46,619 nt of DNA from Asterionella formosa (Eukaryota): contig NKIB01014164.1 of NCBI GenBank assembly GCA_002256025.1, positions 1 to 46,619 of the forward strand, read 5' to 3'. Positions 8,261-45,686 of the stretch are shown here, one piece after another. The translations under genes were made by a program, and so were the position numbers. Positions within the stretch are counted from its first letter, which is position 1, and each line of letters begins with the position of its first letter. The notes below the pieces were generated by a model, which saw nothing but the letters and a program-made list of their open reading frames with translations, did no database searches and was not told the origin of the DNA.

Positions 8261-9334
8261 GATGTTGGGAGAAGGATGAGTGGCAAGGAGGTCTTGCTAG
8301 CTGATAGTCTTTTATATACGGTGTGTGTGTGTGTGCAAGGATTGAATGGCTCGCTCCTTTCTTGATGGTTGTTCTGCAAAAGGATTAATGATATTATACG
8401 ACCGGTTCTTCCGGTTGCTTTTCACAAAAAAGAATCGTGCTTGTCTTTTGTACCGCCGATAACAATAGTACCGGTACCAGTACTCCTACAAAACAAATCC
8501 CAGCATCACGTGAAAAAGTTCCTATGATTTGGCTATATTGATATACCGGTAGGGGTAAAATTCATATTATGGTGGGACCGGTACCGGTTTATGTTCTACA
8601 AAAACTTCTAAAAAATGCATATATATATATCTATGAATGAAGTTTAATCATCCCAAATTGAGTTTGAACAGACAAATGTGTCCCATTTAGCTACATATTT
8701 AGCCTTTTTAAATTTTAAAGATATACATATACGATTATATGTATTTAACAAATGACCTTTTTTATTCAGATGAATACCAGTACCGGTACTACATAAAAAG
8801 GTTTATTATATAGACAGTTTCGGTGATCTAATGAATTTTATGTCCACGTACACGTCAATATATCCAACAAGGTCCAAATATCCTGTCGATTCAATGTTAG
8901 TAGTCTACAGTATCAATTTTTGAGACTCCATATTGATTTATATATTTATACATTACATTTATACTGATTTGCCGAATAGCTAGCAGTACATACACTCAGT
9001 ACATGATGATGTGCCACAATTATTTCATAAAATAATGCAGCATACCGGTACCGGTAGTAGAATGATTCCGGTACCAGGTACCCGTATTCATATTTCGTGA
9101 CATGATAGCTACCGGCTGTTTACTAGCTACACAGAGTACCTGGTACCGAATACCCTAATTACCTTGACGTAATACAAGTACCGGTACCGCTTTAGAGAGA
9201 CGCAATGAATGGCTATACCAGAGGTACCAGGTACATTGAAACAAACAGAAAACATGACTTAAAATGAAAGAACAAAGCAAGCAATAGTATTGGAAGCAGT
9301 TGAAATTGTATTTTTACCCATATTGTACTCCTAG

Positions 9335-11459
9335 CTAGTCAAATCGGATTTTCTTGTTCACTCTCTTGGGTGTTGGCTTCTCGTCAATATCTCTCTTGGC
9401 CTTGTCTCGAAGAGTATCCAAGTCATCCTTGTCATCGGCCCATTCTAGTACCAAATGTCGTCCGTACAAGTGAGTACGGGACAAGGTATGCATAGCTGAT
9501 TGAGCTTCTTGGCTTGTCAAGAACTCAATAAAGGCAAAGCCGCGATGACCACCATCAAACTTTTTGGGCAGGCGAACCTTCTTCAACTGACCAAATGACC
9601 CAAATAACTTCAAGATTTCGGTCCGTGATGCCTGGAAGGGGACATTTCGAACCATGAGCTTGGTTGGGTTTTTTCCATGTGCCTTGGCATCAGGAGCCTT
9701 GTTGGCTCTAGTACCTACAGCTTTGGACGATCTCTTCAGCTCGAGGGCATGCCCGTCAAGAACATATCCTTGCAACGACGTGATAGCCCTCCGGACTGAT
9801 TCTTCGGAATCGCATTCAACAAAACCAAATCCCATAGATAACAACACATCAGACTCATCCGCTTTGCTAGTTTGGCCCTTTTTGATGGCTGCCACCTTGG
9901 TTGGAATTTTCACGGCACGTACTGTCACATGCTGGGTAAAGAGCTGTAGCAACTGATCTTCGGTTGTTGCAAAGTTTAAATTTTTGACATAAATGGAGTA
10001 CGAAACATTGGGTGACATAGAACCATTGTCCAAGGCGTCCTCCTCCGCTTCAGCAACATCAACATTTACCACCGACGGTTCCGAAGGCACCAACACCGTA
10101 GCTGCACCCTGCTTTTCCGTATTTGCAGCCAGTGGCGCCCACTCCAAATACAGAGGCACATGCTTAAATCTCTTGTAGGCTAACTTTTTGAATGCTCGCT
10201 TGGCATCAGAAGCATGATTGTATTCTACCATGGCTATGGTGCGAGACGGTGGCAGCAATATACGATTTGGGGCATCTCCAACCCCACTAAAGAGTTTCAT
10301 CAGATCCTCTTCCTTAGTATCAAAAGGTAAGTTCTTCACTAGAATGGAATTGGAACTTCTAGTTCCGTCATCCGTTGGTGTCTTGGATGATGACGATACT
10401 AAAGCGTCCATGTTGATTCCATGAGAACGGAAATACTCTCGATTTTCTTCAATGAGCTGCGTTTCTGCCAAGGCCAATCTAACTGCAGCATCACCAGAAT
10501 TTAGCCCATCCTTAAGATTGAAAATGTCTCCCTTTCGAATTCCCAGTCGTTCTGCCAAATTGTCAACGACAGCGTCTCCACGCACAAAACTCGCCGACCA
10601 CCCTTGATTGGTCTGTAACGCTTGTTTCTGTCGTAGCAATTCTTGCGTTTGTTTGTACGAGGTCGAATCAATGTTAGCTTCTTCCTCCACTACCGCAGGT
10701 CGTGCTGGGAGGACATGAATCCAACGTCCTTGAAAGTCGGACGAATTCAAGGCCTCCAATGCAAGGTTGGCGTCTTGCAATTTTTCAAAAGTACAAAAAG
10801 CAAACCCCTTGGTTCTTTTTTGATCATCCACAGGTACATGGCATTCTAACAATGTTCCATACTGTCCAAAGTGATCTCTCAAGTCTTCTTCTGTGGTTGA
10901 AAATGGCAAATTTCGAATAAACAGTCGGTTGGATCTGGGGATATCGTCATTATTGTTGTTGGTTGTGTCAGTAGTAGTTGCTGTGGTGAGAGTTGGATCC
11001 TTGTTTTTTGGTTCATCACTTTTAGGTGACGTCGCTTCTGCTATCTTTTCTTCACTGGAATCACCTGACGATGATTCATCACTGGAATCATGTTCTTCGA
11101 AAATCTCTGGTTTCATGGGAACTTCAATTTCATCATCCTCATTGTCCTCATCATCACTATCAAGATTCACTTTGTTAGTTGTGTTCTTTCTAAGAAAATC
11201 TTGATCTGTCAATACTGTTCCAGGAGCAGCTGTTACTTTTTGACTTGTAAATGCCTCCGCATCATCATCATCGGACGACGAAGATGTGGAGGATTTGGTG
11301 GAAGTCGATGAATCATCGGCTACAACAGTGTGATCCTCATGATGGTCTGCTACAACAATAGCATCTGCACCACCATCATCATTTTGCCAAAATTTTGGTT
11401 TATTCTCTGAAACTCCCATGGCTGATAAAAATTCTTGTTTCTTCAAGTCTTGTTTTTGC

Positions 11460-11491
<32 letters not shown>

Positions 11492-11971
11492 CTTCATGTT
11501 GATTTGTTTGGTTGTATCAGAAATGGTTGGCTCTACCTCCATGTCTTTTGCATTTGACTTTTGATTATTTTTCGAGTGTTTGGCTTCATATTTGGATGAT
11601 CCTTGACTATGTTGACTCCATGGTCGGTGTTGTTGTTGTTGTTGTTGTGGTAACATCTTGTCATTCTTTCCAAACGCCAAATCTACAGCCAATTGACTGG
11701 TTTGTGCATATGTGTGATGAAATTGATTGACAATCCATTGTGCTTGTTGAGATGTCTTGACTCCAACAAAGCAAACTTTACGTGACTTTCCTTGAGGATT
11801 ACGTAATACTTTACAATCCGTAATGACCAATTGGGTAGGGACAGTGGAGGAAGATGAGGATAATGATGACGACAACAAATGGGCCTTCACTTTGGATTCG
11901 TCCCATGATAATGGGATATTTTTAATACAAACACGTGTTGACAAAGACGACGACGACGACGACGACGTCAT
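9335..11971 (-). CDS. MRD1: Multiple-RRM pre-rRNA processing protein Mrd1/RBM19
   Basis: Five RRMs (KGFAFC, MGFGFVE, RGFAFIEF) plus the conserved AAVRLALAET, PLYLEWAP and THLYGRHLVLEWA motifs. Confidence 0.95.
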
Positions 11972-12705
11972 GCTGGATGCTATTTATTGCTAATGGCTAC
12001 GAAACTTGAGTTGTTGGGCAAGGAGTAAAGAGCAAGTAATCGAGAATTGAAAGAACAAAATGATGCAAGGGGGCGGCGCCGTTCAGATGTGTAAAATGAC
12101 TCTCAGTAAGAGTACCGGTAATGAAATGAATAAAGTAGCTAGGTATATATAATAGTCGTACAGAAATAAAATATGATTGATATTTTTTTAATGGAGGCAT
12201 CCCAAAATATATGAATTTTAAAGGTTGTTCTTTTCCGCAAACTGTAAAATTGATTGGTTCCAACGATAACTGGTGGGGTTTGATTGTGTGCTGGATGGTG
12301 GGTGGTGGTGGCTGCCAGGGTGCAAATAAAGAAAACAGACCCGGAGTTTCTTGTTCCACCAATTCTACACGGACATCCACATTCATGTGCGTATGAATAG
12401 TAGCTACCTACACAGCTCCTCCTATTCAATATTAACCACTCGAGGCAGGCAGGCAGGCAGGTACGATACAGGTATACAGGTACCTCCGTTGGACCAGGTA
12501 TTTTGTGTGTAGGTGTCATAGTATTTTGCTTGCTTGCTTGCTCGATCGATCCTCGGCTGTCTGCTTCCAAATTCAGTACCGGTATCATTGTTATTATTTA
12601 ACCTGCGTCCCTGGTACCAGGTATCGTACTGTATTACAATTACAGCATTCGATATTTAGTACCCATTAGTATCCTCGTTAGTCTCGTACTAATACCTATT
12701 CCACA

Positions 12706-15116
12706 ATGACATCGACTTGGAACGGCGCTGCCATGTCCCAATGGGACATGATGGAGAAGGACACAGTCTTGGTATTGAATGACAACGATGAGATTCAGGG
12801 TTCTGCTAGCAAAAGGACCTCGCACGTGTTTGGACCGGACCAACCACGAGGGATTCTTCATCGAGCCTTTTCCGTCTTTTTGTTCGACGCATCCACCAAC
12901 GAATTGTTATTGCAGAAACGAGCCAGTACCAAAATCACCTTTCCCGACGTAAGTGCATATAGCTTCTGCCGGTTCGTTTCTTTCGATTGACAAACAAATG
13001 CCTGAGCACTCATTTCATTTGCAAAACTCGAAATTCCAGGTCTGGACCAACACTTGTTGCTCTCACCCACTCCATGGGATGGAACCCAGTGAAGTCGATG
13101 TATCCATTGATGCCGAGGGGTCCGTGCGAGGGGTCAAACATGCGGCCATTCGGAAATTAAACCATGAACTGGGCATTCCACCAATGCAACTAAATGTTGA
13201 CAAATTCAAATTCTTGACACGTCTCCATTATTGGGCGGCCGATACGGTCACTCATGGACCCAAGGCACCATGGGGAGAACATGAGATTGATTATGTTTTA
13301 ATTTATTGCATTCAAAACAAGAAGGAAATGACTCTGCACATCCATCCTGATGAAGTCGATGCGATTGAATGGGTGACCTTGGAGCAGCTTGAAATGCAAA
13401 TGGCGGATCCTAACTTGTTGTTTTCACCATGGTTTAGGTTGATCCTTCAAAAGTGGTTGAAGCCATATTGGTGGAACAACCTAAAGGAAACTATGGAGAC
13501 GAACAAGTATTGCGATTATGAGACCATTCATAGATTTGATCCTCCAAAGGAACATTTGGGTGGCGCTGGAAATGCCGGACCCTTGTTTCCTGATACCATT
13601 ACTGTCGGGGATGTCAAGTGAGTTTATGATTCTTTCAATCCATCAAAGTTAGTGCTTTCGTATTTACTTACAGTTGCTTTCCTACATGCTCCTTGTTTCG
13701 TTCAGCAAAAAGCAGGGGGGCTATGGCAAAATCAAAACTCATTCGGAATCCAAACTCTATCAATTGACTTTTTTGGACGAAGTTTGGTCTGCCATTACGT
13801 TACTGTACATCAAGCCATTGAAGTCCAATCTCGATACAGAGTATATCCAAAACACTTTTTCCAAAGCTGATCTGGCTTTTTGCGATGAAATTCTTGGAAA
13901 AGTATCTAGATCCTTTGCTGCTGTGATTCGACAACTCCCTCCCACGTTGTTGGTAGACATTATGATCTTCTATCTAGTCTTGCGAGCCTTGGATACCATT
14001 GAAGATGACACAACAGCTTTTGCTTCAAATGACGTTAAAGTCGATCACTTGATTCACTTTCATGAAAAGGCATTGGTAGACCCCCAATGGAGTTTGGACG
14101 GAGTGGGCGAAGCTGACGAAAAGAGACTCCTACAACAATTCCCCAAGTGTCATGCTGTCTTTGCCGCCTTGAAAAGTGATTCCAAATCCATTATTACCGA
14201 CATTACTCACCGCATGGCCACTGGTATGGCTGAATTTGTTGGAAAGGATATGGGACAAGGAACGACAGATGTTGTTGAATACAATCGTTACTGTCACTTT
14301 GTTGCAGGTTTGGTCGGGGAAGGTTTGAGTCGGTTGTTTGCCTCCAGTGGACTGGAAGAACCAAGCCTAGCTTCCCATTTGCATTTGAGTGACCAAATGG
14401 GGCTGTTTTTACAAAAGGTCAACATCATTCGAGATTATTTGGAAGATTACGTTGATGGACGTGCTTGGTGGCCACAGACTGTTTGGAAAAAGTATTCTGA
14501 TACAGGAGATCTTGGATATTTTTGTAACCAAGATGATGCAAAAGTTCGAACAAAGTCTCTCCAGTGTTTAAATGAACTCGTCACTGATGCTCTTGAATTG
14601 GGGCCCGATTGTCTTGCATACATGTCCAAGCTGCAGTGTGTCGAAGTCTTTCGATTTTGTGCTATTCCCCAAGTCATGGCGATTTCTACCTTGGACAAAC
14701 TCTACGCAAATCCTGATGTGTTTACTGGAGTAGTCAAAATTCGCAAAGGTCTCTCCTGCAAACTTTTGCTGAGAACTAACAATTTGTACGAATTGCATTC
14801 CATCTTTCATCAATTTGCCACATCAATTGCTACAAAAGCTCAGAAACGACAAAAGGCTGGACTGGATGATCCCTCCTTTGACCGTACCATGCAAGCTTGC
14901 CATGCCATTATCGAATTGACCATGGCCAAGACAAATCAACACCGTTCTACATCCATTTCTTATTTTGCCTTGGTGGGCTTGTGGGGGGCCGTGCTTTGGA
15001 CGGGAAAGGACCAAATGACCATGATTGCAATTGCTGCATTGATGACGTTCATTGTTAGTCCCTGGCGCGCTCCACCAAACTCGTTGAAACCAGCACACTT
15101 ATTGAAACAGAAATGA
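12706..15116 (+). CDS. IDI-SQS: Isopentenyl-diphosphate isomerase-squalene synthase fusion; exons 12706-12948, 13040-13617, 13706-15116
   Basis: IDI type 1 motifs (LHRAFS, WTNTCCSHP, WGEHEIDY) spliced in frame to SQS motifs (VSRSF, LDTIEDD, YCHFVAGLVG, MGLFLQK.NIIRDYLED, FCAIPQVMA) and C-terminal TM anchors. Confidence 0.95.
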
Positions 15117-15656: not shown

Positions 15657-16691
15657 CATTTTAATAATAGAATTACCTCTTCATACTCTTCAATGTCATC
15701 AGTCTTGAGCTCAATGCGAGTTGGTGGTCGTCGGAGCGCCATTTGCTTGTTTCGTTGTTGAAATGTATGTTTGGAACAAAGTTGTTTGTTTTGTTTGTTT
15801 GGGCCGTGGTGTGTGCAAAGTCAAATAAAAATAAAGAAAACAAGAAAACCAAATCGTGCGGCCGTCGGCGCCGGAACAACAACCAACAGAGCGAGTGTGC
15901 TGTGTCTAGGAACGAGTATACCACCAGCACATAGCTGTGGCAGAATGTTGTGATTACCATCAGGCGCGGTTGTACTAGGTACTCTTATGTGCCATCGTTA
16001 GGGTACCAGTACCAGTACCAGGTACCAGGTAGAGAACAGTTCCAAACCAGGTACCTGGCACAGTGGTGCCCCCAAGCAATACAGTACATACATCTGTCCT
16101 GGTCTACGTATATATACTATATGCTGTACAGTCGAGTCTATTGGAAGTATTTAACGGTATATAACGTTTATTAAACGCCCTTCTGCTTGTTTTGGCTCAC
16201 CAATTGCGGAGTAGGTACCGGTAGAACAGTATCATTTTGGTACTCCAGTAGACTACCGGTAGTCTAATAACAGATACGGAGTAACACCTGGTACAAGGGT
16301 AACAGACCATACTGGTATACACATATACCCCTCTGTATGTAGTAAAATAAAGGAGTACAGAACCGGGTGCCTTTAAATTTCTCGCACTTGATGATTTGGT
16401 GTCAGAATCTAAATACAGTCCGTATCATCCAATTACGGTGGTGGTACCAGGTACCTGGTACCGGTATACTCATCGCTCAATGGATGTCAAATCATGATTT
16501 CTATTTTACTACCAGTATATATAGTTACAGGTAGTAAGCTATAATTGTCTCATGCACATCGTGCTCCTTTTTTGGCAACGACCAACACCATTTTGTTTAT
16601 TGTGTATATCCTGGATATCATCTTTGGTGGGTCCTTTTCATTTCAAGTTTTCCCGTTTCGATAGAGGTGATGATATAAGATTGCCTACAAT

Positions 16692-18196: not shown

Positions 18197-20593
18197 TTAG
18201 AGAACAACTGTCGTCACACGAGCTTGCCGTGACAGACGCTGGCCGTCAGAATGTGGAGCGTACATGAGAAGTTCTGCAAAGCTAGAAGGGTCCATGGGAT
18301 TGGTCTCAATTGGGACGGGGTTGGCTTCAATTAGCAACTGTATAGTCTTCATTGTTCTATGATCTTTCGCGAAATAAACGTCCAGTGGCGTACGTCCTCG
18401 AGCATCAACCTCTTTTGCCGCATCCTTCCACTTTTCGAGTAGAAACTTGATGACTTGAGGTGAGGAGTCATAGTAGCATGCTGTGTGCAATGGAGTGAAT
18501 CCAACGGTAGTCTTTTCCTTGAAGATGTTATTGTATTCACCGACTAGTAATCGAACTTTTCTCAGTCCTAGCTTGTGGCGACAAGCAAGGTGAAGCGGTG
18601 TACTGCCACCCTCACCACTTTTCATCATTATGGTAACCGGATTCTTGCCTACCAGATAGGCGATTTTTTCGTAACAAAAACGATCAATCGATGCAGCACG
18701 GTGAAGGGGGATATGACCATGTTCGTCTTTGGTGACAAGACATTTAGGGCGAGACTCTACTAGCAACATCACCTGATCCATTGTATATGCATGTGCAAAC
18801 TTGATTGCTTCGTCAGCTGCTTCAGGAAAGATTTTGTATGTTTTCTCAACCAAAGGAAGTTTTGCACCAAGAAGGCATATAGCTGTCAGTGGGTACATCT
18901 GTTCTTGGGGAGAAAAAGTAGGCAGGTGGTACCTAGCCTTGAAAATACTTTCGTGAAGGTCAGCCAAATTGCTGACTGTTTCTTCATCCAATTTTGCTGC
19001 TTCAGCGGCGATAAATGGATTCAAATCGAGGTGCTTTAGAAGAGTTTTTTCCGCTTCATTTTTTGAGCTCGCCTTGACGCCGTCGTGATGAGTCGATTGC
19101 CCCAAAGTTGGCGCATCTAGCAACTTGGTCTCCTCAGGAGAAATGAACTCAGATGGCTTATTTATTAGCAGTTGTGGTATCAAAGGACAGAAATCTGTAT
19201 TAACTATGGTAGGATACAAATCAGTCTCTCGTCCCTCATAGAGAACTGTTGAAGTTGTCAATTCACAAGGCTTTCCAGGGAAATTCGCAATTCCCAAAGT
19301 GAGTAGCAGGGTGTCTCGTGTCATCCTATTGGGTGCTTCTAGTTGCAAGCGAGCATGGTGCGACAGTAATGCTTTTACCATACCAGCGTCATCGAGTAGT
19401 CCTATTGGAAAAACGAGATCAAAGGCCTTAGGTTGGCATGGATCTGAAGCAGCCGAAACATTCAGAAATGGCCGCAAATGGATTTGATTTAGGGTATTTC
19501 CAGCCAACTGGTAAATAGTAGTGGCGCTCATCACTTTCTTTTTTATGATATTGATTTCGATCTGAACTCGAAACGTGTGCCCTTTGGCGTTGCCTCGTCC
19601 CTTCAAGTTGCTAAACTGAGCACCACGAACCAGCGCTTGACGTGCACCATTGAAAAGAGACACATCCGCGACGATACAACGTCGTGTCTCACAAGTCACT
19701 GTTCGCTTCTCCAATGTTGTTTCTGTCGGTTCGTTTGCTTCCCGATTAAGTTCTCCTCGCTTTTCAAGAGTGATGAGACATTTCAAGCGATGGCCGACAT
19801 CTGTTGGAGAAGGTTGGTAGGCAGCGTAGGTTGCTCCTTTCAGAAGTACCCATTCGACGGGTACTTTCCCTCGAGCTACGATTTGGGCTTCGCAAAATTC
19901 AATCTTGGCGACTTCACCCACTGATCGAAACCACTGAAACTCATAGCCTTGAACAGGACACGGCTGCAATTCCGACAATCGAGTCACCAAAATCGACGAC
20001 GTTGTAGCTGCGGCAGACGTGGCGGGGAGGAGTTCAAATGTTCCAAAGCTGGTCTGAAGAAAGAGATTGCATGTCAAGGATTTGATGACTTCTTTTTCCT
20101 TCGTTGGTTCCGCGGCCGGACGAGCTGCATGGCGCTCTTTTGCTTCGATTGCTGCCGTTGCGACTGCGGAAGCTGCATTCTGAGCTGTTGTAACTGCTGA
20201 TGATGCAATCTGAGAAGTGGCGATTGCCGACACTGCATGCTGAGCGGTTGCAACTGCTGAGGCAGCAATCTGAGAAGTAACCACTACGGATGCTGCATTC
20301 TGAGCAGTTGCAAGTGCTGATGCTGCGATCTGTGACGTTGCAACTGCAGATGCTGCAATCTGAGCTGTGGCTCGAACACGATACCCCCAAGATGACAGCT
20401 TTCCAAGAGTGGAATTATCGGGTTCGACGTTGTCGACTGGTTGTAAATGTTCTGATTTGAATTGTCCTTCGGAACTTTCTGAAATGTGTGTAACAGGTGG
20501 AACTAAAGCTTCTTCGACGAGATGGATTGTGCTTACAAATTGATTCTCGCTCACTCCACAGTTTTTGACATCTCCTATCGTAAGTTTCAACAT
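18197..20593 (-). CDS. Protein with Ala-rich 10-aa repeats, an Ig-like (AIR9 A9-like) domain and C-terminal ankyrin repeats
   Basis: 798-aa ORF; FQWFRS...YQPSPTDVGHRLKC; ankyrin motifs GHIPLHRAA, GSTPLHLAC, GFTPLHTAC, GRTPLD. Confidence 0.75.
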   Translation of the reverse strand: MLKLTIGDVKNCGVSENQFVSTIHLVEEALVPPVTHISESSEGQFKSEHLQPVDNVEPDNSTLGKLSSWGYRVRATAQIAASAVATSQIAASALATAQNAASVVVTSQIAASAVATAQHAVSAIATSQIASSAVTTAQNAASAVATAAIEAKERHAARPAAEPTKEKEVIKSLTCNLFLQTSFGTFELLPATSAAATTSSILVTRLSELQPCPVQGYEFQWFRSVGEVAKIEFCEAQIVARGKVPVEWVLLKGATYAAYQPSPTDVGHRLKCLITLEKRGELNREANEPTETTLEKRTVTCETRRCIVADVSLFNGARQALVRGAQFSNLKGRGNAKGHTFRVQIEINIIKKKVMSATTIYQLAGNTLNQIHLRPFLNVSAASDPCQPKAFDLVFPIGLLDDAGMVKALLSHHARLQLEAPNRMTRDTLLLTLGIANFPGKPCELTTSTVLYEGRETDLYPTIVNTDFCPLIPQLLINKPSEFISPEETKLLDAPTLGQSTHHDGVKASSKNEAEKTLLKHLDLNPFIAAEAAKLDEETVSNLADLHESIFKARYHLPTFSPQEQMYPLTAICLLGAKLPLVEKTYKIFPEAADEAIKFAHAYTMDQVMLLVESRPKCLVTKDEHGHIPLHRAASIDRFCYEKIAYLVGKNPVTIMMKSGEGGSTPLHLACRHKLGLRKVRLLVGEYNNIFKEKTTVGFTPLHTACYYDSSPQVIKFLLEKWKDAAKEVDARGRTPLDVYFAKDHRTMKTIQLLIEANPVPIETNPMDPSSFAELLMYAPHSDGQRLSRQARVTTVVL
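20161..20370 (-). repeat. Coding tandem repeat, 30-bp unit x7 with a 60-bp higher-order period
   Basis: Encodes AQIAASAVAT/SQIAASALAT/AQNAASVVVT/SQIAASAVAT/AQHAVSAIAT/SQIASSAVTT/AQNAASAVAT. Confidence 0.85.
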
Positions 20594-20867: not shown

Positions 20868-22001
20868 TTATTGATGTTTCTTCTTTTTTGTTTTCTTCTT
20901 CTTTCCTGACGATGGTTTCAGTTTCGCATCCTTCCACCGATCAGTAATATAACTTGGTAATGGACGATAAGATGAATTGTCTTTTGCACCAAAGCAATAT
21001 ACCAAATGTGACAACCTGTGTCGTGCATTCATTTTCAGTCTAAGATCGAAATGAAATGCAGTGTGCTCACAATCTGTTGTCCCGTCCTCTTCATAGCCGC
21101 TATATCGGGCAGTTCCGTTCAGCAATGACATTCGATAAATTGCAAAGATACTAAAGGATGATTCCACCTCAATCAAACCATTGGGCCATGATGAGGCGTT
21201 GTCAAAGAGGCTAGTCAGGTTATGTTCATATATGTCAAAGTCGTCGAAATACGGATTGTCTTGTCCCTTGAACAAAAAGTTGTGTGGCAGCATGACCGGA
21301 TGTCGGAAGGCCCACCAGTCGTAATAAGGAATTTGTCGAAACGTCAAAACATCCCATTGGTCTCCTAGTTCCCATATTACGTACTTGAATATATTCGGAT
21401 CGTAGTTCCCTTCCCAGTCGGATGAGCAAATCATATCTGGATCCATCATGACCATGTAGTCATAGTGTGCATAGTGCTGTTCGGCATACTCCAACACAAT
21501 GTTCCGTGCCTTGGCAAGTCGTAATGTCTTTGGTGCGTAATTGTCGCCTAGTCCTTTTTCGAGGAGCAAATGGTCGTTCGCGCCTGGAACATTGTCTTGC
21601 ACTAAAATGGTACAAATACTTGTATTACCACCTCATTGGTTCAGCAGTTCATTACGAGTGTTGTCCGTGGAATCATTTTCGTAAAACACAAAATGAAACT
21701 CGCGTGTTATTGTTTTGGCCAAGGCAATAAATTTTGGAACATTGTCCTTGGCGCTGATTTCTATGTTTCGCCAAACGGCACAAAAGACAATCTTGGGCAA
21801 GATGTACGGCACGCGTCGTTGTCCGGTGATTGCAGGTTCCGGTAGTAGTGCCGTGGAATCGTTGTCATAGTAAAAGTTGAAGCGAAAATTTTTGGATGGA
21901 ATTCCTTGTAGAAGGAAAAGTGAAGAAATTGTAATTAGCGCAAGTGCAAACGGCAGGATTCGGATCAACTGACGGTGACTTAAGAAAACGCTAGCCGACA
22001 T
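20868..22001 (-). pseudogene. Type II membrane GT-A glycosyltransferase (CAP59-like motifs) with one in-frame TGA at 21635-21633
   Basis: Two ORFs in the same frame read YENDSTDNTRNELLNQ*GGNTSICTILVQDN...; LAKARN, MMDPD (DxD), VESSF..FAIY and DCEH..FH motifs; N-terminal TM. Confidence 0.7.
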
Positions 22002-22147
22002 TCTCTCAGGCTGCAACAACAGAAGGGAACGACAGAGAAATGAAGACTGGACACGTTTGTTTTGGCCATTGTTGATTCCAAAAGTAAGAACCGTCTTCTA
22101 CTGTAAGGCAACAAGAGAGGTTCGATCTGTTACGTCACGTCAATTTA

Positions 22148-23260
22148 TGTTAATCTCATAAGTATACCGGTATACCGGTATATGTATTTGGAGACGGACA
22201 GACGGAAATTCTGACGCGTCACCTAAATGATAATGACACACGATTAAGCTATGTTGGCAATTTGCGTTGGGCAATAGAATTAGGCCGCATTGATCTGGCA
22301 CATACAGGTGCAACAATGGCCACATTCATGGCAGCACCCTGCAAGGGACACATGGTCGCCATTTTGAGAGTTTTTGCTTGTTTACGAAAACACATTTCTT
22401 GTAAGTTGGTTGTTGATCCACGAGAACATGATTGGTCCAATAAAATATGGATATCTGCAAATTGGAAAGAATTTTATCCAAACATTAAAGAAGATCTTCC
22501 TTCAAATGCACCAAAACCACGTGGAAAAGCATACAATTAAACATGTTCTGTGATGCATCACATGCTACAAACCTGGTGACAATATGATCTACAACAGGCA
22601 TTATCATCTTTCTGAATGGCACTCCAGTCAAATGGTATTCTAAAAGACAAAATACAATTGAGTCATCAACTTTTGGATCTGAATTTGTTGCATTAAAAAT
22701 AGCAGCAGAAATGAATGATGCCATGCATTATAAGGTACACATGTTGGGTATTCCCATAAGTGAAGCTACAAAAACTTTTTGCGATAACAATAGTGTTGTA
22801 CTGAATGTAACACGACCTGAATCTACATTACAGAAGAAATACAATTCTATCGCCTATCATAAAGTGTGTGAATGTGTTGCAACAGAGGCAATGTGAATTC
22901 ATCATGAACCGGTAACCAGCAACTTGGCAGATGTCTTAAACAAATGGTTACCTCCCCATAAACATCTTGAATTATTTTGTTGCATGTTATGGCATTAACA
23001 TCAAGATGAAAATTAACATTTCCTTCTTGAGGGGACTATGTTAATCTCTTCATATACATATATTTTTGGCGACAGACAGATGGAAATTCTGACGCGTCAC
23101 CTAAATTCTGATTCTCTTGTGCCCTCGACTTTATTTTGTTTTACTTTGTGTAACTTAATAGTTTTTTTACATCTTCCTTTATCCCTTCCATCATTGTCTT
23201 CACCTCTGTACCCCGTTTGTAATCGTTTTCATTGTCTACCACATTAGCGAGATCTTAACA
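22148..23260 (+). mobile_element. Internally deleted, degenerate Copia LTR retrotransposon: partial 5' LTR 22148-22228, RT end and RNase H about 22240-22998, PPT, 3' LTR 23039-23260
   Basis: Both LTRs share TGTTAATCTC...GGAAATTCTGACGCGTCACCTAAAT; LRWAIELGRID, CDASHA, WYSKRQNTIESSTFGSEFVA and CDNNSVV motifs; GAGGGGAC before the 3' LTR; ends TTAACA; AATTT on both flanks (one base offset on the left). Confidence 0.9.
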
Positions 23261-24272
23261 AATTTGAAATGATAAGAGCATGCAAAATCTTGCGAATAAT
23301 TTAAATTTATCTAGCTGTATACAGGTACTCCGCCACTGATTTATATAGCGGTACTCTAGCACTGATAACATACCGAAACCGGTGAACAATTAAGGTTGGC
23401 CCAGAGTACGTTGCGGTTATTGGCAATTAACATCATGGCCTACATTTCAGTTAGAGAAGTTAGTAATATCCAAATCTTGACAATCTCGCCAATAGGCCTT
23501 CTCTCCATCCACCTAATTCAACGTTGGGGCTTTCATTGTCCACATCTCCTTTTCCTTTAAGCCACTATCATCAATTTAGGATCGACCCCTCCGATTAGAA
23601 CAAAACTGATTCGCAGCACCGAAATGCCGAGAGCCGGGGAGATCCCACTCACTCTCTTAACCTAGTAGCTCGTAAGCTTTAAGTCGACTCTGTACCATTC
23701 AGAAACGGTTGGAACCAATCCTGGCTGACAAGAACTGTCATCTTGGATTCAAAGATCATCTAGTGATTCAATTCAGGGGTGGGGGTGGGAAATTTTCTTC
23801 TCCTCCTAGATTCGACCTTGTACCCCGCCAGAGGATGATCAGGTCCTCCGAAGCAACAACCAACAAGAATGAGGCTCAACAAGTGTACAACTTCTCTAGA
23901 ATGCGTTGTGTCAACGAATTCAGAGAGTGAGCTATTTTATCCCTCACAAGCACCAGTGGATGTATACGTAAGTAGTAGTACATATATTATTCTGAGGCCA
24001 ACAGCTGCCCGAATAATTTTACTGACGCTCCTCTGCTGTTCTTCATGTAGTCCTATATCTTAGCTGGAACCACGAGATAATACGTAGAAGTACTGTACAG
24101 TGGTGACTACCGGTATTCGTTATGCATGATAGCAGGCAGGCAGCCATTAGCAATAGAATGAAGGTGTCTGTTAGTTAGCAATAGTGAAAGCGTGAAGGGT
24201 GTCCTTAACCTCGCTTACAATTTTGAAAATTAATCCTTTAAAACAGCTTAACATGTAGCCCTTTATCACTTA

Positions 24273-24572
24273 TCTACTAAGTAAGTCACTATTTTGGACT
24301 TCACACAGCCACATGGACTTGGTTTATCAGACCCAACGCAGGAAGCAAGAGTGATGATAGAGGAAAGACGGTAAGGCCAGCGGAAATGAACCGAATGGTG
24401 AATGAATTTTAGCGATGCGATGTTGCCAAAGTGTCGATATTTCCGGATACACTAGCGACGGCTGGATGTGGACTTTGCTTGGAAGCACACAACAATGGAT
24501 AGAGAAAGGGAATCCTTCTCAATTCCTAGCGCAGCGAGCGGCCAAGCAAAGCGATACTGATCATCTCACTAG
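24273..24572 (+). mobile_element. Possible non-autonomous Helitron (300 bp)
   Basis: A|TCTACTAAG at the 5' end; GC-rich GCGCAGCGAGCGGCCAAGCAAAGCGA shortly before a terminal CTAG; the next base is G rather than the usual T. Confidence 0.35.
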
Positions 24573-27070: not shown

Positions 27071-27472
27071 ATTAGCAAACAAACAATCAAACTTCGCCAG
27101 CATAATTCCCCATCAATATCGAGACCATATTATTCGTTATAAGACTGAGATCATCGTCGTCCCCGCAAGAAGGTAGCTTGTAAGGGATTCAACAAACGCA
27201 CATGGCTTGTAAGAAATTCGATTACTGATATGCAAATGGAGAGATAATGACGAATAATACCAGTACAAGAATTGGATCAAAGCATGTACTGGTAGAGCAT
27301 TCAAATCGGAATGGCAACAAGGATCGCACCGTTGTTGCACAGAATTCATTCTGATAGCCTTGTTGGGTACAGGGTTTACATAAAGCACGTAAGGTGATCT
27401 ATGAAAAGTCATAACCTTCGCTAAAACAATAATTGATCAAAGAACAACAGCTATTGATCAATCAAACAATGT

Positions 27473-27824
27473 ATCAATATATCAAAGCATTTGGTTAGCA
27501 TATTAGTTTTGATAACTAACATATATGACTTCTATCTATGCGTAAACTGACGTGTGTAAGAAAGTAATATGACAAAGTAATCTGACAAACAAATTTGATT
27601 GACCACACCGACACAGTCATTGATATATCATAATTATCATCAACATAACACAACATTTGATCAATATATCAATAATTTTGGTTAACCGATTAGATTTGAT
27701 AACTAATATATATGAGTTCTTGCATATGCATAACCTAACATATGTATGCTACTACTAACCAAATGTATAAATTTGATTGATCATACAGACACTGCCGTTG
27801 ATATATCAAAATTATCATCAACAT
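27473..27824. repeat. Diverged AT-rich direct repeat, about 187-bp period, two copies
   Basis: Both copies run ATCAATATATCAA...TTTGATAACTAA.ATATATGA.TTCT...AAATTTGATTGA.CA.AC.GACAC...TTGATATATCA.AATTATCATCAACAT, starting near 27473 and 27660. Confidence 0.85.
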
Positions 27825-27899
27825 GTCAAAATATTTGAATGATCAATCAGTTTTTTAACGTATGCTGAGTAAAATGTTAGATCTAATGGAAAATCGAAA

Positions 27900-29660
27900 A
27901 TCTATTCACAGACATTGCCGATTTGCTGTTGATGAGACACCGCCTTTATGATAGCCGCCTTGGTAGTTCCTGATGAATTGTTTCCAGGGGGAAAGGCGAA
28001 TGCAGAGGACTGGTTGCTTAACAAATGATGTATGTAGGCCACGAAAACGTGAGTGATGCGATGTCCTCCTGGCACATTGCGAAGCTGAGAATCGAAAAAG
28101 TCATTCGAAGTCCTCTATTGTATTTCATTTTTGGATTGTTACAGGTGAGGAGATGCTCTGTTGTTTCAAAAACTTTGCAATGAGGACAGGATGTCCTCCC
28201 TTTGGAGATGAGAGCGCGTCTTGAGCCGGTTGGTATCCAGCTATGGATGAACTTTGTGATCATCACTCGTTCATTTGCCGATTTGGCTTTAAATGCTTGA
28301 GAAATGCCACCCAATGAATATTTGAGTAAGAAAACTCTATACTATGTTTTTCTGAGAAGAATTTCTTGTACAGTTTTTGTTGTATCGCAACTCTCACTCT
28401 GTGAGAAGTTGCGCTGTGTATTCCTGTGTTTCCGATAAGCACACTGGCTCCCATTTGTGGAAAATGTGGTCTATTTGGACGCAGATAGCCGGTTAGACCT
28501 CTGGGATGCATCAAAAGATATCGCTCCGCCAGAGGATCTGCTCTTACATTTAGTTTCGTTGACAACAAGAGTCCCTCTATGTCTCTAGATGTGTCTTGAT
28601 GCAATCTTACCCAGCAAATCCACTTTCATTTCAGTTGGTGTACTGCCAACAATCTCTTGAAGTATGGAGACATTGTCGGCATTAAGAGGAGGTCGACCCC
28701 TTGATATGCCTTCCTTGATAACCTGGACCTGTTTGATCGCCACAGCACTATCACTCCAGATATACAGAGGAGTACTCGATGTATTCACTGCATGATACTT
28801 AATAAATTCTGTAAAGAACCGTAAAACTGAGGCGATTGCAAATAGCTCAGCTCGTGTAGAGCTGCTTCACTCTGGATCCCCATCAAGCGGGGGGCCTGAG
28901 CAAGAAACTGTTTCCCATGGAATATTCATATTTCCACTCTTCAGACGTAATGACCACGCGTAGGAGGATGCCCCATCCTTAAGTGAGTCGTCTCTTCCCA
29001 CTTGGCACGGAAGTCCCAGTCTCAGGTGGCGTATTAGCCTCGATTCTGTCGCAGTTGTATATTTTAGAGAGTGTGTCAATTTTGTAAGTATATTGAGAAT
29101 GTACCTTGATGATTTTGAAATGTGGTTGGGGAAGAGATAACATGTGAGCCATCTGTTGTGAGTCATAGGTCTGTGGAGTAGCCATGTTGTTTTGGTTTGC
29201 TGCCAAAGTTGTTTTGTAGATACTGAGTAAAAAAATTTCCACATTTGTGCTGGTGGACCTGTCCATTTTCCGAGACATTGGTGAAGGTATAGTGCAACCG
29301 ATGTCTTGGTCTTCAATAAGCATTTGGTTTGAGCTGATTTCCAGTCTGCTTTTTGCTGGTCTGTAGGTCAGGTTGGTTTGGCCAGAGAAGCGTAGATTTT
29401 CTGTCCTTCAATTTCTTGCATTTGAAAATTTCTGGGCGTAAACGCAACCAGTCCGCAGTGTCTATATCAGCAACCGTGGCAATTTGTGGAAATATCCGAC
29501 AACAGTTGAGATGGAACAATTTGAAATTGCTAATATTCGACTCCGAAAATGTCTCCATCAGAACTCTATCATGTCATATTGAGTGATTTGAATATGTCAA
29601 ACGGATTCATGCCTTGGCTGCATACAAAATCGTTAATTGGAGTAAAAAGTGTCCATGCAT
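27900..29660 (-). mobile_element. 5'-truncated, frameshifted non-LTR retrotransposon remnant (post-RT region, RNase H, CCHC knuckle)
   Basis: Fragments LNCCRIF..IATVADI...WPNQP; SLKDGASSYAW; SSTRAEL; IWSDSAVAI; LNVRADPLA; KFIHSWIPTG...CPHC...ETTEHLLTC. Confidence 0.8.
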
Positions 29661-30239
29661 GTATGTTGATCACATTTTTAGGGTATTTATAGTACATACA
29701 GAGAGTTTTTTAAAATATATTTAGCGATTTCGACAAGGAATCTATGTACATATTCTCAAATTTCCACTGAATAAAATATTTCAAATGGAATCACATCATT
29801 CAAAAATAGCTAATAAAATTCTCAATTGCAGCACCGATTGCACCACTATTACTTAGAGAAACCAAAATTTCACCATCAGATTACCCATAAATAAAATCCG
29901 TGGTACTACGGCCTGCACTACCATAGTGATATTTACTACGTAGGATCACGATCAGATTCATATTAGATATGTATTTTGTAGTAGCCACAACCGTAGGATA
30001 CCCGGTACATAAATGTGATTGGAAATACCGGTACTAATAAAGTATTGCAAGCATTTTGTATCATATACCGGTATATAGGTTACTACCGGTAATGAATTCT
30101 TAACAAAGACACTCCGTGCTGACCTCATATTGTCGCTGCACCACATTGCACCACCATAGACATACTGGTACTTCATTTGCAGAAGTGTCAGCCAATCAGA
30201 AAATCTATTTTTATTTTCAATTTCAACTTGTAGTCGTTA

Positions 30240-30299
30240 TCAGCAAATTCTACTTGTAATCAGCAAATTCTAGTCATAGTCAGAAAATTCCAAATGTAG
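30240..30299. repeat. 20-bp tandem repeat x3
   Basis: TCAGCAAATTCTACTTGTAA / TCAGCAAATTCTAGTCATAG / TCAGAAAATTCCAAATGTAG. Confidence 0.7.
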
Positions 30300-31249
30300 A
30301 ATGATTCCTATTTGTATTTCAAAGCAAGGAGATGGTTTGTTGAACCAGTAATTTGGTTGATCAGGCAGCAAATCCGTGTCATGTTTAGGTTTGATTCTGC
30401 AAATCGTCATAAGTCAAATGTGTAATGTATCCTGAGTTGTTACTTAAGGATTAATATTTTCATCAAGAGCTGGCCTGTCTCGTCTGGCAGGTATGGGGCA
30501 AATCATTGGGAGTGAATTGTAACTGAAAAGGTGTGCATAAAACGTGCGGTAACTGGTACCAGAGCATCCAGGAGAATATGGTAGATGCATGAGCGTCAGA
30601 ATTATCACGATAAAATAGGCTGTAAATATATGTGTTGTATTCCTACAATGTAATAGTATTCTACATAAATATAACGGGAGCACTAATGTGATAGAACTCT
30701 TCTCATCATACCGGTACACCCCTCAAGTTTTATGCATGATGGTGTTCACCACTTGAGGGTCAGTAAAATACCTGAACAGATCCTGGAGCTGATTGTTTGT
30801 CCACACAGCTGTCATACAATCCTTGTCCTGTATGGTTACATTCATCAGCAGGTTTATACTATGGCTGAGGCATACTCGCAAGTTTCTTTTGTTCCTATGA
30901 TGCTACTCCTGCAACATTCTTCTCTCCTTATCCTAGGTCATGATTGTTATTGCAATTGACATACATCTCCCCAACAACAAACTTTATTCAGCCCTTTACT
31001 TCTCCTCACCACCTGACTTGTTGAATTCAATTCCCTAGAGGAGCGAGCTGTCCATGCTGCCTGCCAATAAGGCCATTTTCATGAAACCAAAGATATTCAA
31101 TTAATTGATTTCCTTTTGTTCTTTGCTATTCTTCCATCCATTTAATGTTGATCACCTTGAAGATATTGTTCATGCATCTAGTATACTCTTAGGCATACCC
31201 TGCCCTAGACTATTAATATTTGAGGAGGAGTCAAACATTTATCAATTTT

Positions 31250-34279: not shown

Positions 34280-34926
34280 GATGGGGACTGTGGATGTGGT
34301 GATAATACATGTGGTGCTGTTCCCATGGGTATCAGATACACGACGTACATTGAGTACGATTTACCATTAAATACCAGGGGGTTAGTAATAAAATGTACCG
34401 GTATTACGTATACTGTATATATTTATGATTGGAAAATCGACCTGATGTACTTTCTACAAAGAAAATGAAACGTGGTGAGTACAGTATCTGCAACTTGCGG
34501 TAATTGCGCTGTAACTAAACCTTTAGCTTTCTTTATCCTATGTACCGGTATATAAAATTGTTTTTTTAAGGAAAATGACCGCAAATTGTTGGTTTAACAG
34601 ATACTGGTTGGTACTTGCAGAGGGCGGCGGTGTGGTCATTTTGCTGAAACTGATGATAAGGCATCAAGGCACCAGACATCAGACATCAGGCCTGTATTTA
34701 ATGTCATCATGGAAAAACGTCTTAAAATTCATGGTTGAAACCTTCGGCTCCCACTATCAATACCGGTATATAGGTACATTTGCCGGTAGCATGACTCAGG
34801 TCTGCACGACTCCAAAATTTCCCAAGTCTCACAAAACAAACAATCCCTTTCCTACAGCACAAATTCACAATATCGATATCGTTCTATTAATTCTGCAACA
34901 GAGAAGGAAATTGATCATATTTGAAA

Positions 34927-35994: not shown

Positions 35995-36690
35995 ACATGA
36001 CAGTTGTGGAGGTCATCATGGAATATGTTAGGAATGTAAGTGTTAGTATCATCATCAAATAATACATATATGGAATCCTTGGGTCTAATTTGTTCGATTA
36101 CTAAAACTAGGAAAACCTCTGCAAGGAAGAGACATGCATACATACTATGTAATGGGAAGAACCACAACCTGGTACTCACAGTCCTACTAGAAAATACTTA
36201 AAAGGTGCTTGTTCATCTTTATGATACAAGAATGTACAGTATACATGTGTATAGGAAGTAGCAAATAGTTTTTTTTCGTGTCATGGAATGACGATATTTG
36301 CCTTCTGTCATGATGCTGTTTGGCAAAGCAATGAGGAGCCGAATAAATAGGATTCATATACCGGTAATAAGAAGAAAACATTCTTTGTAATGTAATTTGT
36401 ACGTAGCTACATAGTATTTCAAATACGAAGTCATATTATGTATTACCGGTTTGACCTGGTCCTATGTACGGCACCCACACCGATACTTCGTTGAGGTTGT
36501 TCGCCCACTACCGGTATGCTGGTCATTTCTTATGACAGCGGCTCAAAATTATCGTCACTAACAATATTTATCTCATTACTATTATATGCAATACTCTCAA
36601 ACTTCGCTCCACAATCGTTTCGTTGCATACACCACAAACAGTTATAAATATCTTTCTTTACTTAAATAACAAGCAGACGAAGACCTAACT

Positions 36691-40236: not shown

Positions 40237-40968
40237 GCCCATTAAGAAAAGAAGTTTTCGTGAACATACAGGACAAATAATTGTTGTAATGCTCTAGCCA
40301 TAATATGCATGATACATCGAATTAATAATTGCAATTGTTTTGATTGTCATTGAGCTAAAGCAAATACAAATAGATTTTTTTTAAATTTGTTTATGTGGGC
40401 AATGATGATGAGAACTGATAAAGTCGCATGGAAGTTTTGAAAAGATTTTTATATTTTAAATTTCAGCAGGGAATCGACTCGAAGTTACTTCGACGACTCA
40501 ATTACCATTACATCATAATTTATGTATATAGACTGTATTCTAATTCTTTTTTGTCATTAAAGGAATACCGGTAACAAACATGCCGGTACCCTGGTAAGCA
40601 CAAACCAAAGAATCAGGCGCGCCAGAAAAATATTGCTCTTGGTATGATGACCTATCCGTGCCCTCCTTGTTCTCGCACTGGTTTGTACTTGTGTACCAGG
40701 TACCTGGCACCAATCTTGTATGTAGACGACATTTCCATGTATGTATGCACGCATATGTACAAAGCAGAAAGAACCCCAACAAGGTTTCGACATGGTGGTG
40801 GGGATAATTATTGTTCAATCGATAATACTTAAGAAAATAGAATTGCTAAATGTTTTCATAGGTTTTTCTGTGATTTGCATCGCTTTTTGTCATAGACTAT
40901 ATTCTTCCACACAGCAATTTAAGTTGCTGTCTTTGAACGTCTTCCCATCGCAGCTTTCCATTACACCC

Positions 40969-45113: not shown

Positions 45114-45686
45114 TGGCGTTTGTCTAACAATTGGTTGGAATCGAATGGTATGACTTGAAAGGAAAGAATGATGATCAATGAGCATGCGATGGAGTGGTAC
45201 ATACACAAATACGGCACCAGTAAAGAAACACAATAACGACTTGTGATGTTATGTGATTGTGGTAGTACCTGGTACCAGGTACTCCTACCAGGTACCATAT
45301 GCCGATACCGGTAATAGCACATGTACCTGTGTACCGGCAGGAGATTGCTGCGAGCGACCAGAGGAAAGAAATTGTAGTGCGTGTTTATTATTAGCCATAC
45401 TAGACTGCCGGTACCAGTAAAGAACTGCTGTGACCAACTGAGTTCTCCTATTCGTTTGATTAGTTCGACTAAACCTATTCCATGCCTTGCGAGAATCAAA
45501 CTTCCAGGTCTTGTTAACCAAAGGAGTCAGCAGGTTGCGGATCAGTCGGTATTCTCATTGAAGGTCGAGGTACTGAGATACGAACCATTTTATGTGGACA
45601 ATATTTGCTGGTAATGGGTCACAGCAGTACTTAAAATTTTATCTATAATTGTATATAATTTTATATACCATTATGATCACGGATTA

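Follow-up and report, generated by a model that had tools for sequence, protein, structure and literature searches.

Two abutting copies of the 8-nt palindrome TACCGGTA lie in the 5′ long terminal repeat (LTR) of a decayed Ty1/copia element, next to the start of a gene, and they are a derived feature of that LTR. In the 46,619-nt stretch of DNA analysed here (hereafter the window), the palindrome is confined to non-coding upstream DNA. We propose that insertion of the element was followed by a microhomology deletion, by a post-insertion gain of the motif in the 5′ LTR and by retention of the new pair as an upstream element, an account that we regard, taken as a whole, as moderately probable. 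How the mutational steps were ordered and of what kind they were, along with any selection on the pair and any effect on transcription, we infer from the sequence, and these points are worded accordingly below.

The palindrome and its genomic setting

By its gene content, the window is gene-dense diatom DNA. The named relatives of two adjoining ORFs, one for a NUDIX protein (12998–13621) and one for a squalene synthase (13686–15116), are all diatoms (Pseudo-nitzschia, Nitzschia, Haslea, Thalassiosira, Cyclotella and others; 62–72% identity), and together the two ORFs match one fused 743-aa protein at 100% identity. The NUDIX/IDI and squalene synthase ORFs are 64 nt apart and many diatom IDI-SQS fusions also match; the arrangement at 12998–15116 suggests either that a short intron separates them or that they form a read-through fusion gene. 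A protein-atlas comparison of the squalene synthase added no taxonomic information of use. Parts of the window were found in 20 public runs from 17 studies, mostly freshwater metagenomes, and the contigs of four runs (X1, X2, X6 and X7, with X1 the deepest) were compared at 80% likeness.

Several repeats occur elsewhere in the window. The coding region of an ankyrin-repeat gene (18197–20593) holds a 30-nt periodic repeat at 20163–20371, with five copies in register, and the AT-richest part of the window, at 27465–27856, is motif-free and contains two overlapping repeat families, ~180 nt apart and 78–81% identical. The 9 kb up to the SYF1 gene are without a long ORF and include TE-like ORF fragments on the minus strand (28018–29367). 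The summed depth of X1 rises about tenfold from 24136 (24136–24400, and on to about 31200), so that another repeat family begins there. Pfam returned no family for any of eight queries, which comprised the pol fragments and the neighbouring gene described below as well as the four TE-like ORFs at 28018–29367.

The most frequent 8-mer in the window is TACCGGTA, with 26 occurrences; 100 dinucleotide-preserving shuffles gave 0.19 on average and never more than 2, and an order-2 Markov model of the non-ORF DNA (21 kb) predicts 0.54 occurrences. If the form with a 1-nt spacer is counted as well, TACC(N0-1)GGTA is found at 42 sites (26 unspaced TACCGGTA and 16 spaced), none of which lies inside the 25,286 nt of long ORFs. 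Thirty-five of the 42 are located 47–965 nt upstream of an ORF start, and the remaining seven (5072, 24108 and five between 29999 and 30709) fall in stretches without a called gene. Clusters of TACCGGTA and TACCNGGTA stand at 8469–9233, 12113–12623, 16004–16466, 29999–30716, 34396–34768, 36359–36516, 40566–40702 and 45266–45313. Sites often abut: six neighbour pairs are spaced by 6–8 nt, whereas 5000 random placements gave 0.63 such pairs on average and never as many as six, and chains with mixed units read TA, unit, TA, for example at 16445–16466 and 9043–9056. The next most enriched TA-NNNN-TA word is TACCAGTA (n = 8), whose reverse complement TACTGGTA occurs three times; the two are probably what CpG transitions of TACCGGTA would be expected to produce. 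Together with the one-base-spaced TACCNGGTA, TACCGGTA appears to be the dominant upstream element of this diatom.

Outside diatoms, the 8-mer is known from promoters of Phytophthora infestans, where it bears the name M94; in the excerpted text of that study, M94 is absent from the six motifs tested by reporter (PMC3597505). The twin palindrome TACATGTA is described there as very abundant in P. infestans promoters, with 4150 occurrences (PMC3597505, in excerpt). Upstream motifs of 9–10 nt that contain the 8-mer are quoted for oomycetes in a further, likewise excerpted source, namely ATACCGGTAT from Plasmopara halstedii and GTACCGGTA from Seidl et al., as cited (PMC10031896). Like M94, as far as the excerpts of its description go, the motif reported here is over-represented upstream of genes, and it is the identical 8-nt palindrome in another stramenopile lineage (PMC3597505). 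Unlike the oomycete motif, that of the diatom is far denser, stands in most upstream regions of the window, is often chained and has a 1-nt-spaced form. A literature search for TACCGGTA and ACCGGT in diatoms found no diatom report; occurrences of bare TACCGGTA in the full-text literature were, among the matches listed, primer or barcode look-alikes and were set aside. TACCGGTA is best read as a putative stramenopile upstream cis-element.

A Ty1/copia remnant with unequal LTRs

The preliminary description of this locus had placed the motif in an LTR string at 22158–22191 and had quoted a 21-mer as its counterpart in the other LTR. These strings are present as written, with TACCGGTA at 22165 and 22173, and the 21-mer occurs once in the window, at 23049–23069 (no match in 100 shuffles). 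The two motif copies (22165–22172 and 22173–22180) form an exact 8-nt tandem within a perfect 20-nt palindrome at 22163–22182. They belong to a direct repeat whose left copy spans 22148–22228 (81 nt) and whose right copy spans 23039–23106 (68 nt). The first 10 nt of the repeat agree at all 10 positions and the last 49 nt at 44, whereas the middle measures 34 nt on the left and 21 nt on the right, so that the surplus is 13 nt and not 12. On the plus strand, 23049–23069 is the motif-free 3′ LTR counterpart of the variable TA-rich segment, and the 3′ LTR as a whole (23039–23260) contains no ACCGGT. Elsewhere in the 1.1-kb element ACCGGT occurs once, inside the pol coding remnant, and there is no further TACCGGTA.

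That 22148–22228 and 23039–23260 are the LTR pair of a single old Ty1/copia element with an internal deletion is supported by the joint presence of a TG..CA 3′ LTR, a polypurine-tract-like run, AATTT on both flanks and an intervening Ty1/copia pol remnant. The 3′ LTR (23039–23260, plus strand) is complete, with 222 nt, TG..CA termini (the CA end placed by reading) and an imperfect terminal inverted repeat, and the polypurine-tract-like GAGGGGAC (23029–23036, plus strand) lies just before it. The 5′ LTR (22148–22228, plus strand) is truncated to its first 81 nt, which correspond to nucleotides 1–68 of the 3′ LTR. A putative 5-bp target-site duplication, AATTT, stands on the left at 22142–22146, with one extra A (22147) before the TG of the LTR, and on the right at 23261–23265, where it matches the left copy at 5/5 positions.

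Between the LTRs, 22229–22998 (plus strand) holds the decayed 3′ end of a Ty1/copia pol, from the RNase H region, in two reading frames with in-frame stops. It is 89–93% identical to an intact 309-aa relative, P0121 (94/105 and 94/101 in two alignments). Among the matches listed, PF07727 (RVT_2) is present on 119 of the 120 long relatives of P0122, the sister protein, and three have PF00665 as well. With its pol homology divided between two frames and interrupted by stops, this copy of the element is dead. Gag, protease, integrase and RT are all missing from the remnant, and the region of the primer-binding site is deleted. Homology to P0121 begins at query residue 24, that is, at codon 22223, and the LTR repeat ends at 22228; the hexamer CTAAAT at this deletion junction (22223–22228, plus strand) is common to the LTR repeat and the pol frame (L-N of LNDN), and these six shared nucleotides point to a microhomology deletion. 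By such a deletion, some time after its insertion, the element would have lost the stretch from LTR nucleotide 81 to the end of pol. Within the pol remnant (22223–22998), a TGA at 22897–22899 takes the place of an arginine of P0121 (EAMRIHH), a change consistent with CpG decay in an old copy.

Depth and contig ends delimit the same element. The summed word depth of X1 is 10,964–14,874 in the four bins of 22148–23283 versus 884 in the flanking unique bins, a jump that indicates a multi-copy family and supports the borders of the element; unique X1 contigs end at 22193 and start at 23239, and the depth drops after the bin ending at 23283. The left border is crossed by an X2 contig and the right border by contigs of X2, X6 and X7, indicating that the insertion is shared among populations. 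Exact 19–24-mers of the LTR core matched six metagenome loci, all with unrelated flanks and hence chance matches, and had no match in prokaryote genome contigs or viral contigs. With P0121 as the query, a PDB sequence search gave only two chance-level matches (E 0.43 and 0.88), and a protein-guided scan of viral contigs found no relative.

Diatom CoDi elements have LTRs of 153–844 bp, with TG/CA ends in 23 of 26 families, according to the excerpted text of their survey (PMC2806351, Maumus et al. 2009). The present element is like them in its RVT_2-polyprotein-related pol C-terminus, its TG..CA LTR of 222 nt, its polypurine-tract-like run and its putative 5-bp flanking duplication. Unlike the catalogued members, it is a remnant, and its LTR pair is ~90% identical, compared with 94–100% in the excerpted data (PMC2806351). 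Recombination between family members, too, is reported for CoDi elements in these excerpts (PMC2806351), and by that path the two repeats might not be sister LTRs: the left piece could come from another copy or from a recombinant that already had the motif, the difference between the repeats then being a family polymorphism. A truncated 5′ LTR fused to pol does make this a rearranged element, and the target duplication needs its 1-nt offset. However, the AATTT flanks agree at 5/5 positions, a simple 6-nt microhomology deletion within one element explains the fusion, and among the matches listed no contig of the family carries the blocks from which such a piece could have been drawn. We consider a non-sister origin distinctly doubtful and treat the repeats as the LTRs of one insertion.

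Polarity and route of the gain

The two LTRs of an element are identical at insertion, and the pair thereby provides a built-in ancestor for polarising later changes. In the deepest run, X1, two contigs from other copies of the family follow the letters of the right LTR to 23063, then read ATGTA or ATAAA, and continue with the letters of the left LTR from 22185. Both cross the variable segment without CCGGTA, at depths of 1029 and 858, near the single-copy level; they are the two bridging contigs among the matches listed, judged by their junction letters, and metagenome joints below 95 likeness can come from other organisms. The CCGGTA blocks are found in no other LTR-family contig among the matches listed. 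The bridging contigs are without them, which makes the blocks an acquisition of the 5′ LTR. The preliminary description had proposed just such a gain in the gene-proximal copy, naming blocks in the family at large as the contrary outcome; two of two listed bridging contigs without blocks are the opposite of that outcome, and the proposed polarity is borne out.

Each LTR has its own derived changes, as position 23070 illustrates: most other copies (2, 5, 3 and 3 contigs in X1, X2, X6 and X7, respectively) share the base of the left LTR there. Could the blocks have been present at insertion and later have been lost from the 3′ LTR? Slippage can remove short palindromes that stand between TA repeats, and a 6-nt absence is seen at another motif site (24108, see below). 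Against this, the 3′ LTR matches the two other copies up to 23063, and a loss would have had to recreate the outgroup state exactly, which makes a deletion scarcely credible. Nor are the blocks an assembly slip, given that an X1 contig covering 20863–22193 is identical to the window and that an X2 contig from an independent study (22017–22219, 203 letters) has five substitutions and no gap across the blocks. In this second population the gained stretch keeps its length; the substitutions there may touch motif letters.

By which route was the pair gained? The preliminary description had TA become TACCGGTA twice, through two CCGGTA insertions whose removal restores colinearity to within 1 nt. 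With both blocks removed, the lengths do agree to that degree (22 versus 21 nt), but the letters do not (16 of 22 columns match in a hand alignment), and the double insertion is not supported in the form proposed, in view of the 13-nt surplus, the single contiguous 12-nt gap and the exact 8-nt tandem. Under three affine gap settings, the optimal alignments of the left with the right copy place the surplus either in a continuous gap of 12 nt and a single-nucleotide gap or in gaps of 9 and 4 nt (two co-optimal alignments each); with linear gaps, more than 100 alignments are co-optimal. The 3′ LTR reads TATAC and then ATAT, and its C can be the first C of a motif. Insertion of 4 nt and then tandem duplication of 8 nt would explain the pair with no more events than two 6-nt insertions do; two 6-nt insertions at TA also give the observed sequence, but they require loss of the ancestral C of TATAC. 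Between fixed anchors, the net change relative to other family copies is +9 (hand alignment), so that any route needs extra length changes in the TA repeat or three adjacent substitutions.

None of these mutational routes is clearly the most parsimonious. We rank a small insertion plus slippage first, as the likeliest, because tandem motif pairs are common. Along this route, the TA-rich segment of the 5′ LTR would have gained TACCGGTA after the insertion of the element, by a small insertion into an ancestral TATAC/ATAT, and an 8-nt tandem (slippage) duplication would then have yielded the 20-nt palindrome with its two motif copies. Starting from the state of the other copies, a change of ATA to CGG by three adjacent substitutions, combined with an 8-nt duplication, was also considered; it is possible but not preferred, since three specific neighbouring changes are needed.

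A second TACCGGTA, at 24108–24115, bears on the same question. A homologous X7 contig, which joins the window at 24140, is without exactly 6 nt there; 30 of its letters are homologous to 24093–24139, with ~22 matching, and the 6-nt gap has four co-optimal placements. This contig may represent an allele, a paralogue or a relative. The site shows that unit-sized length differences at the motif do occur, and it keeps motif turnover of the indel type a live idea; both the 6-nt gap at 24108 and the 12 + 1 difference between the LTRs also fit slippage or microhomology deletion. The preliminary description had taken the LTR pair as in-window evidence for an insertional origin of the motif. A general insertional origin would rest on this one case and on a weaker one at 24108, and it is unproven. 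Among the 12 of 87 indels listed between run contigs and the window, none is a motif-unit indel, which says little; over the motif cluster at 16000–16470, the number of gaps in a contig is 12 (X6 record 17), 7 (X6 record 18) or 44 (X7 record 25).

The DNA just before 24108 varies in its own right. One joint each in X6 and X7 skips 23410–24135, and colinear contigs are present in both runs as well; in loose ends of short X7 contigs, 23416–24079 is missing by reading. The skipped stretch of ~660–730 bp at 23416–24079 is a structural variant or a paralogue, and the variant is also the one without 6 nt at the TACCGGTA of 24108.

Insertion of exact units would be expected from a dedicated process that targets TA and adds CCGGTA (a duplicated TA plus a self-complementary CCGG), for example as the scar of a cut-and-paste transposon that inserts at TA and whose excision leaves short overhangs of its termini; two hits on neighbouring TAs of the LTR would have made the pair, and the promoter motif would largely be a by-product. 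Transposons of the Tc1/mariner type, which target TA, leave excision footprints composed of TA, a few symmetric bases and TA. The motif unit resembles these in this shape and in adding 6 nt at a TA. The resemblance is formal only; no such element, inverted repeat or transposase was found in the window. Several observations agree with a TA-targeted process: removal of two 6-nt units restores the length to within 1 nt; CCGGTA after TA is among the four co-optimal placements of the exact 6-nt absence at 24108; mixed-unit chains occur (16445–16466, 9043–9056); unspaced and 1-nt-spaced sites are both present (26 and 16, respectively); and the twin palindrome TACATGTA is very abundant in P. infestans promoters, according to the excerpts (PMC3597505).

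Other observations speak against it. A TA-flanked CC..GG element was sought among 5687 TACC/GGTA pairs, 60–8000 nt apart, in the window, and none was found: of six matches, five are tied to motif sites or arrays, and a convincing inverted repeat is absent from all six. No transposase family was found among 16 long ORFs scanned. In the LTR, the surplus is 13 nt, a 12-nt block is preferred, the ancestral C fits the motif and the tandem is an exact 8 nt; at 24108, the contig is only ~22/30 identical and may come from a paralogue or another species, and the TA repeats of the palindrome would allow an ordinary microhomology deletion to remove the 6 nt between them. We therefore think a TA-targeted process at this locus quite unlikely. 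Its broadest version would hold that TACCGGTA and TACCWGGTA in diatom promoters, and perhaps TACCGGTA and TACATGTA in oomycetes, are primarily scars of TA-targeted cut-and-paste with self-complementary 4–5-nt overhangs, that repeated hits build the chains and that transcription factors adopt the scars later. This we regard as highly improbable; were it true, the LTR pair would have captured two of these events and would be the first dated record of them.

The neighbouring gene and the fate of the pair

Why might the pair have been kept at this place? The neighbouring gene (20868–22001, minus strand) has a signal-anchor N-terminus and is glycosyltransferase-like by language-model features only. 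It contains an in-frame TGA at 21633–21635 in the window and in X1, and X2, X6 and X7 have T>A at 21633 (TGT, Cys); the TGA looks like a strain-specific nonsense allele. The old element, which is of the Ty1/copia type and like CoDi of diatoms, would have inserted ~146 bp upstream of the start codon of this gene and displaced its original upstream DNA by ~1.1 kb. Today, 164 and 172 nt separate the two upstream motif copies from the ATG at 22001, distances that are usual for the motif. No other full motif is found within 2 kb upstream of this ATG, the next being that at 24108, and the displaced upstream DNA beyond the element contains only near-motif forms, at 23320 and 23378. It seems reasonable to suppose that the pair compensates for the displaced promoter of the gene, and it was probably kept because it supplies the dominant upstream element at the usual distance from a gene.

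Alternatively, the pair could reflect neutral instability of the microsatellite type, with a TACCGGTA that arose by chance, was duplicated by slippage and stands near a gene by accident, without function or selection. The TA-rich LTR segment is of low complexity, and its length also varies among the 3′ LTR and two other copies; tandem motif pairs are common; and the neighbouring gene is interrupted by a nonsense codon in this strain. On the other hand, with 0.54 occurrences expected in 21 kb of non-ORF DNA, a chance appearance of the 8-mer is unlikely, and more so at a typical promoter distance; no TACCGGTA was gained elsewhere in the 1.1-kb element, nor any ACCGGT beyond that in the pol remnant, and the surplus length is conserved in a second population. 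We judge a purely neutral origin unlikely and favour retention of the pair as an upstream element.

Transcription-factor sites are known to arise in transposon-derived DNA, through exaptation of transposable elements and through binding-site turnover. The present case would be like such exaptation in that a cis-element appeared de novo in a promoter-located LTR, after the insertion had displaced the older upstream DNA. It would differ in that the site was not carried in by the element and arose afterwards, by a change in length and not by point substitutions alone. The locus is a clean single-locus example of motif birth in transposon-derived DNA; it is an instructive anecdote rather than a discovery, and its weight is modest. 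Here the logic of LTR pairs, in combination with outgroup copies, dates the birth of a putative promoter element in transposon DNA, at a place where an insertion displaced the upstream region of a gene. The wider question is whether this stramenopile palindrome turns over by substitution, by slippage of existing copies or by insertion of exact units at TA, and the route of turnover matters for understanding the maintenance of a promoter motif that is so dense and nearly universal.
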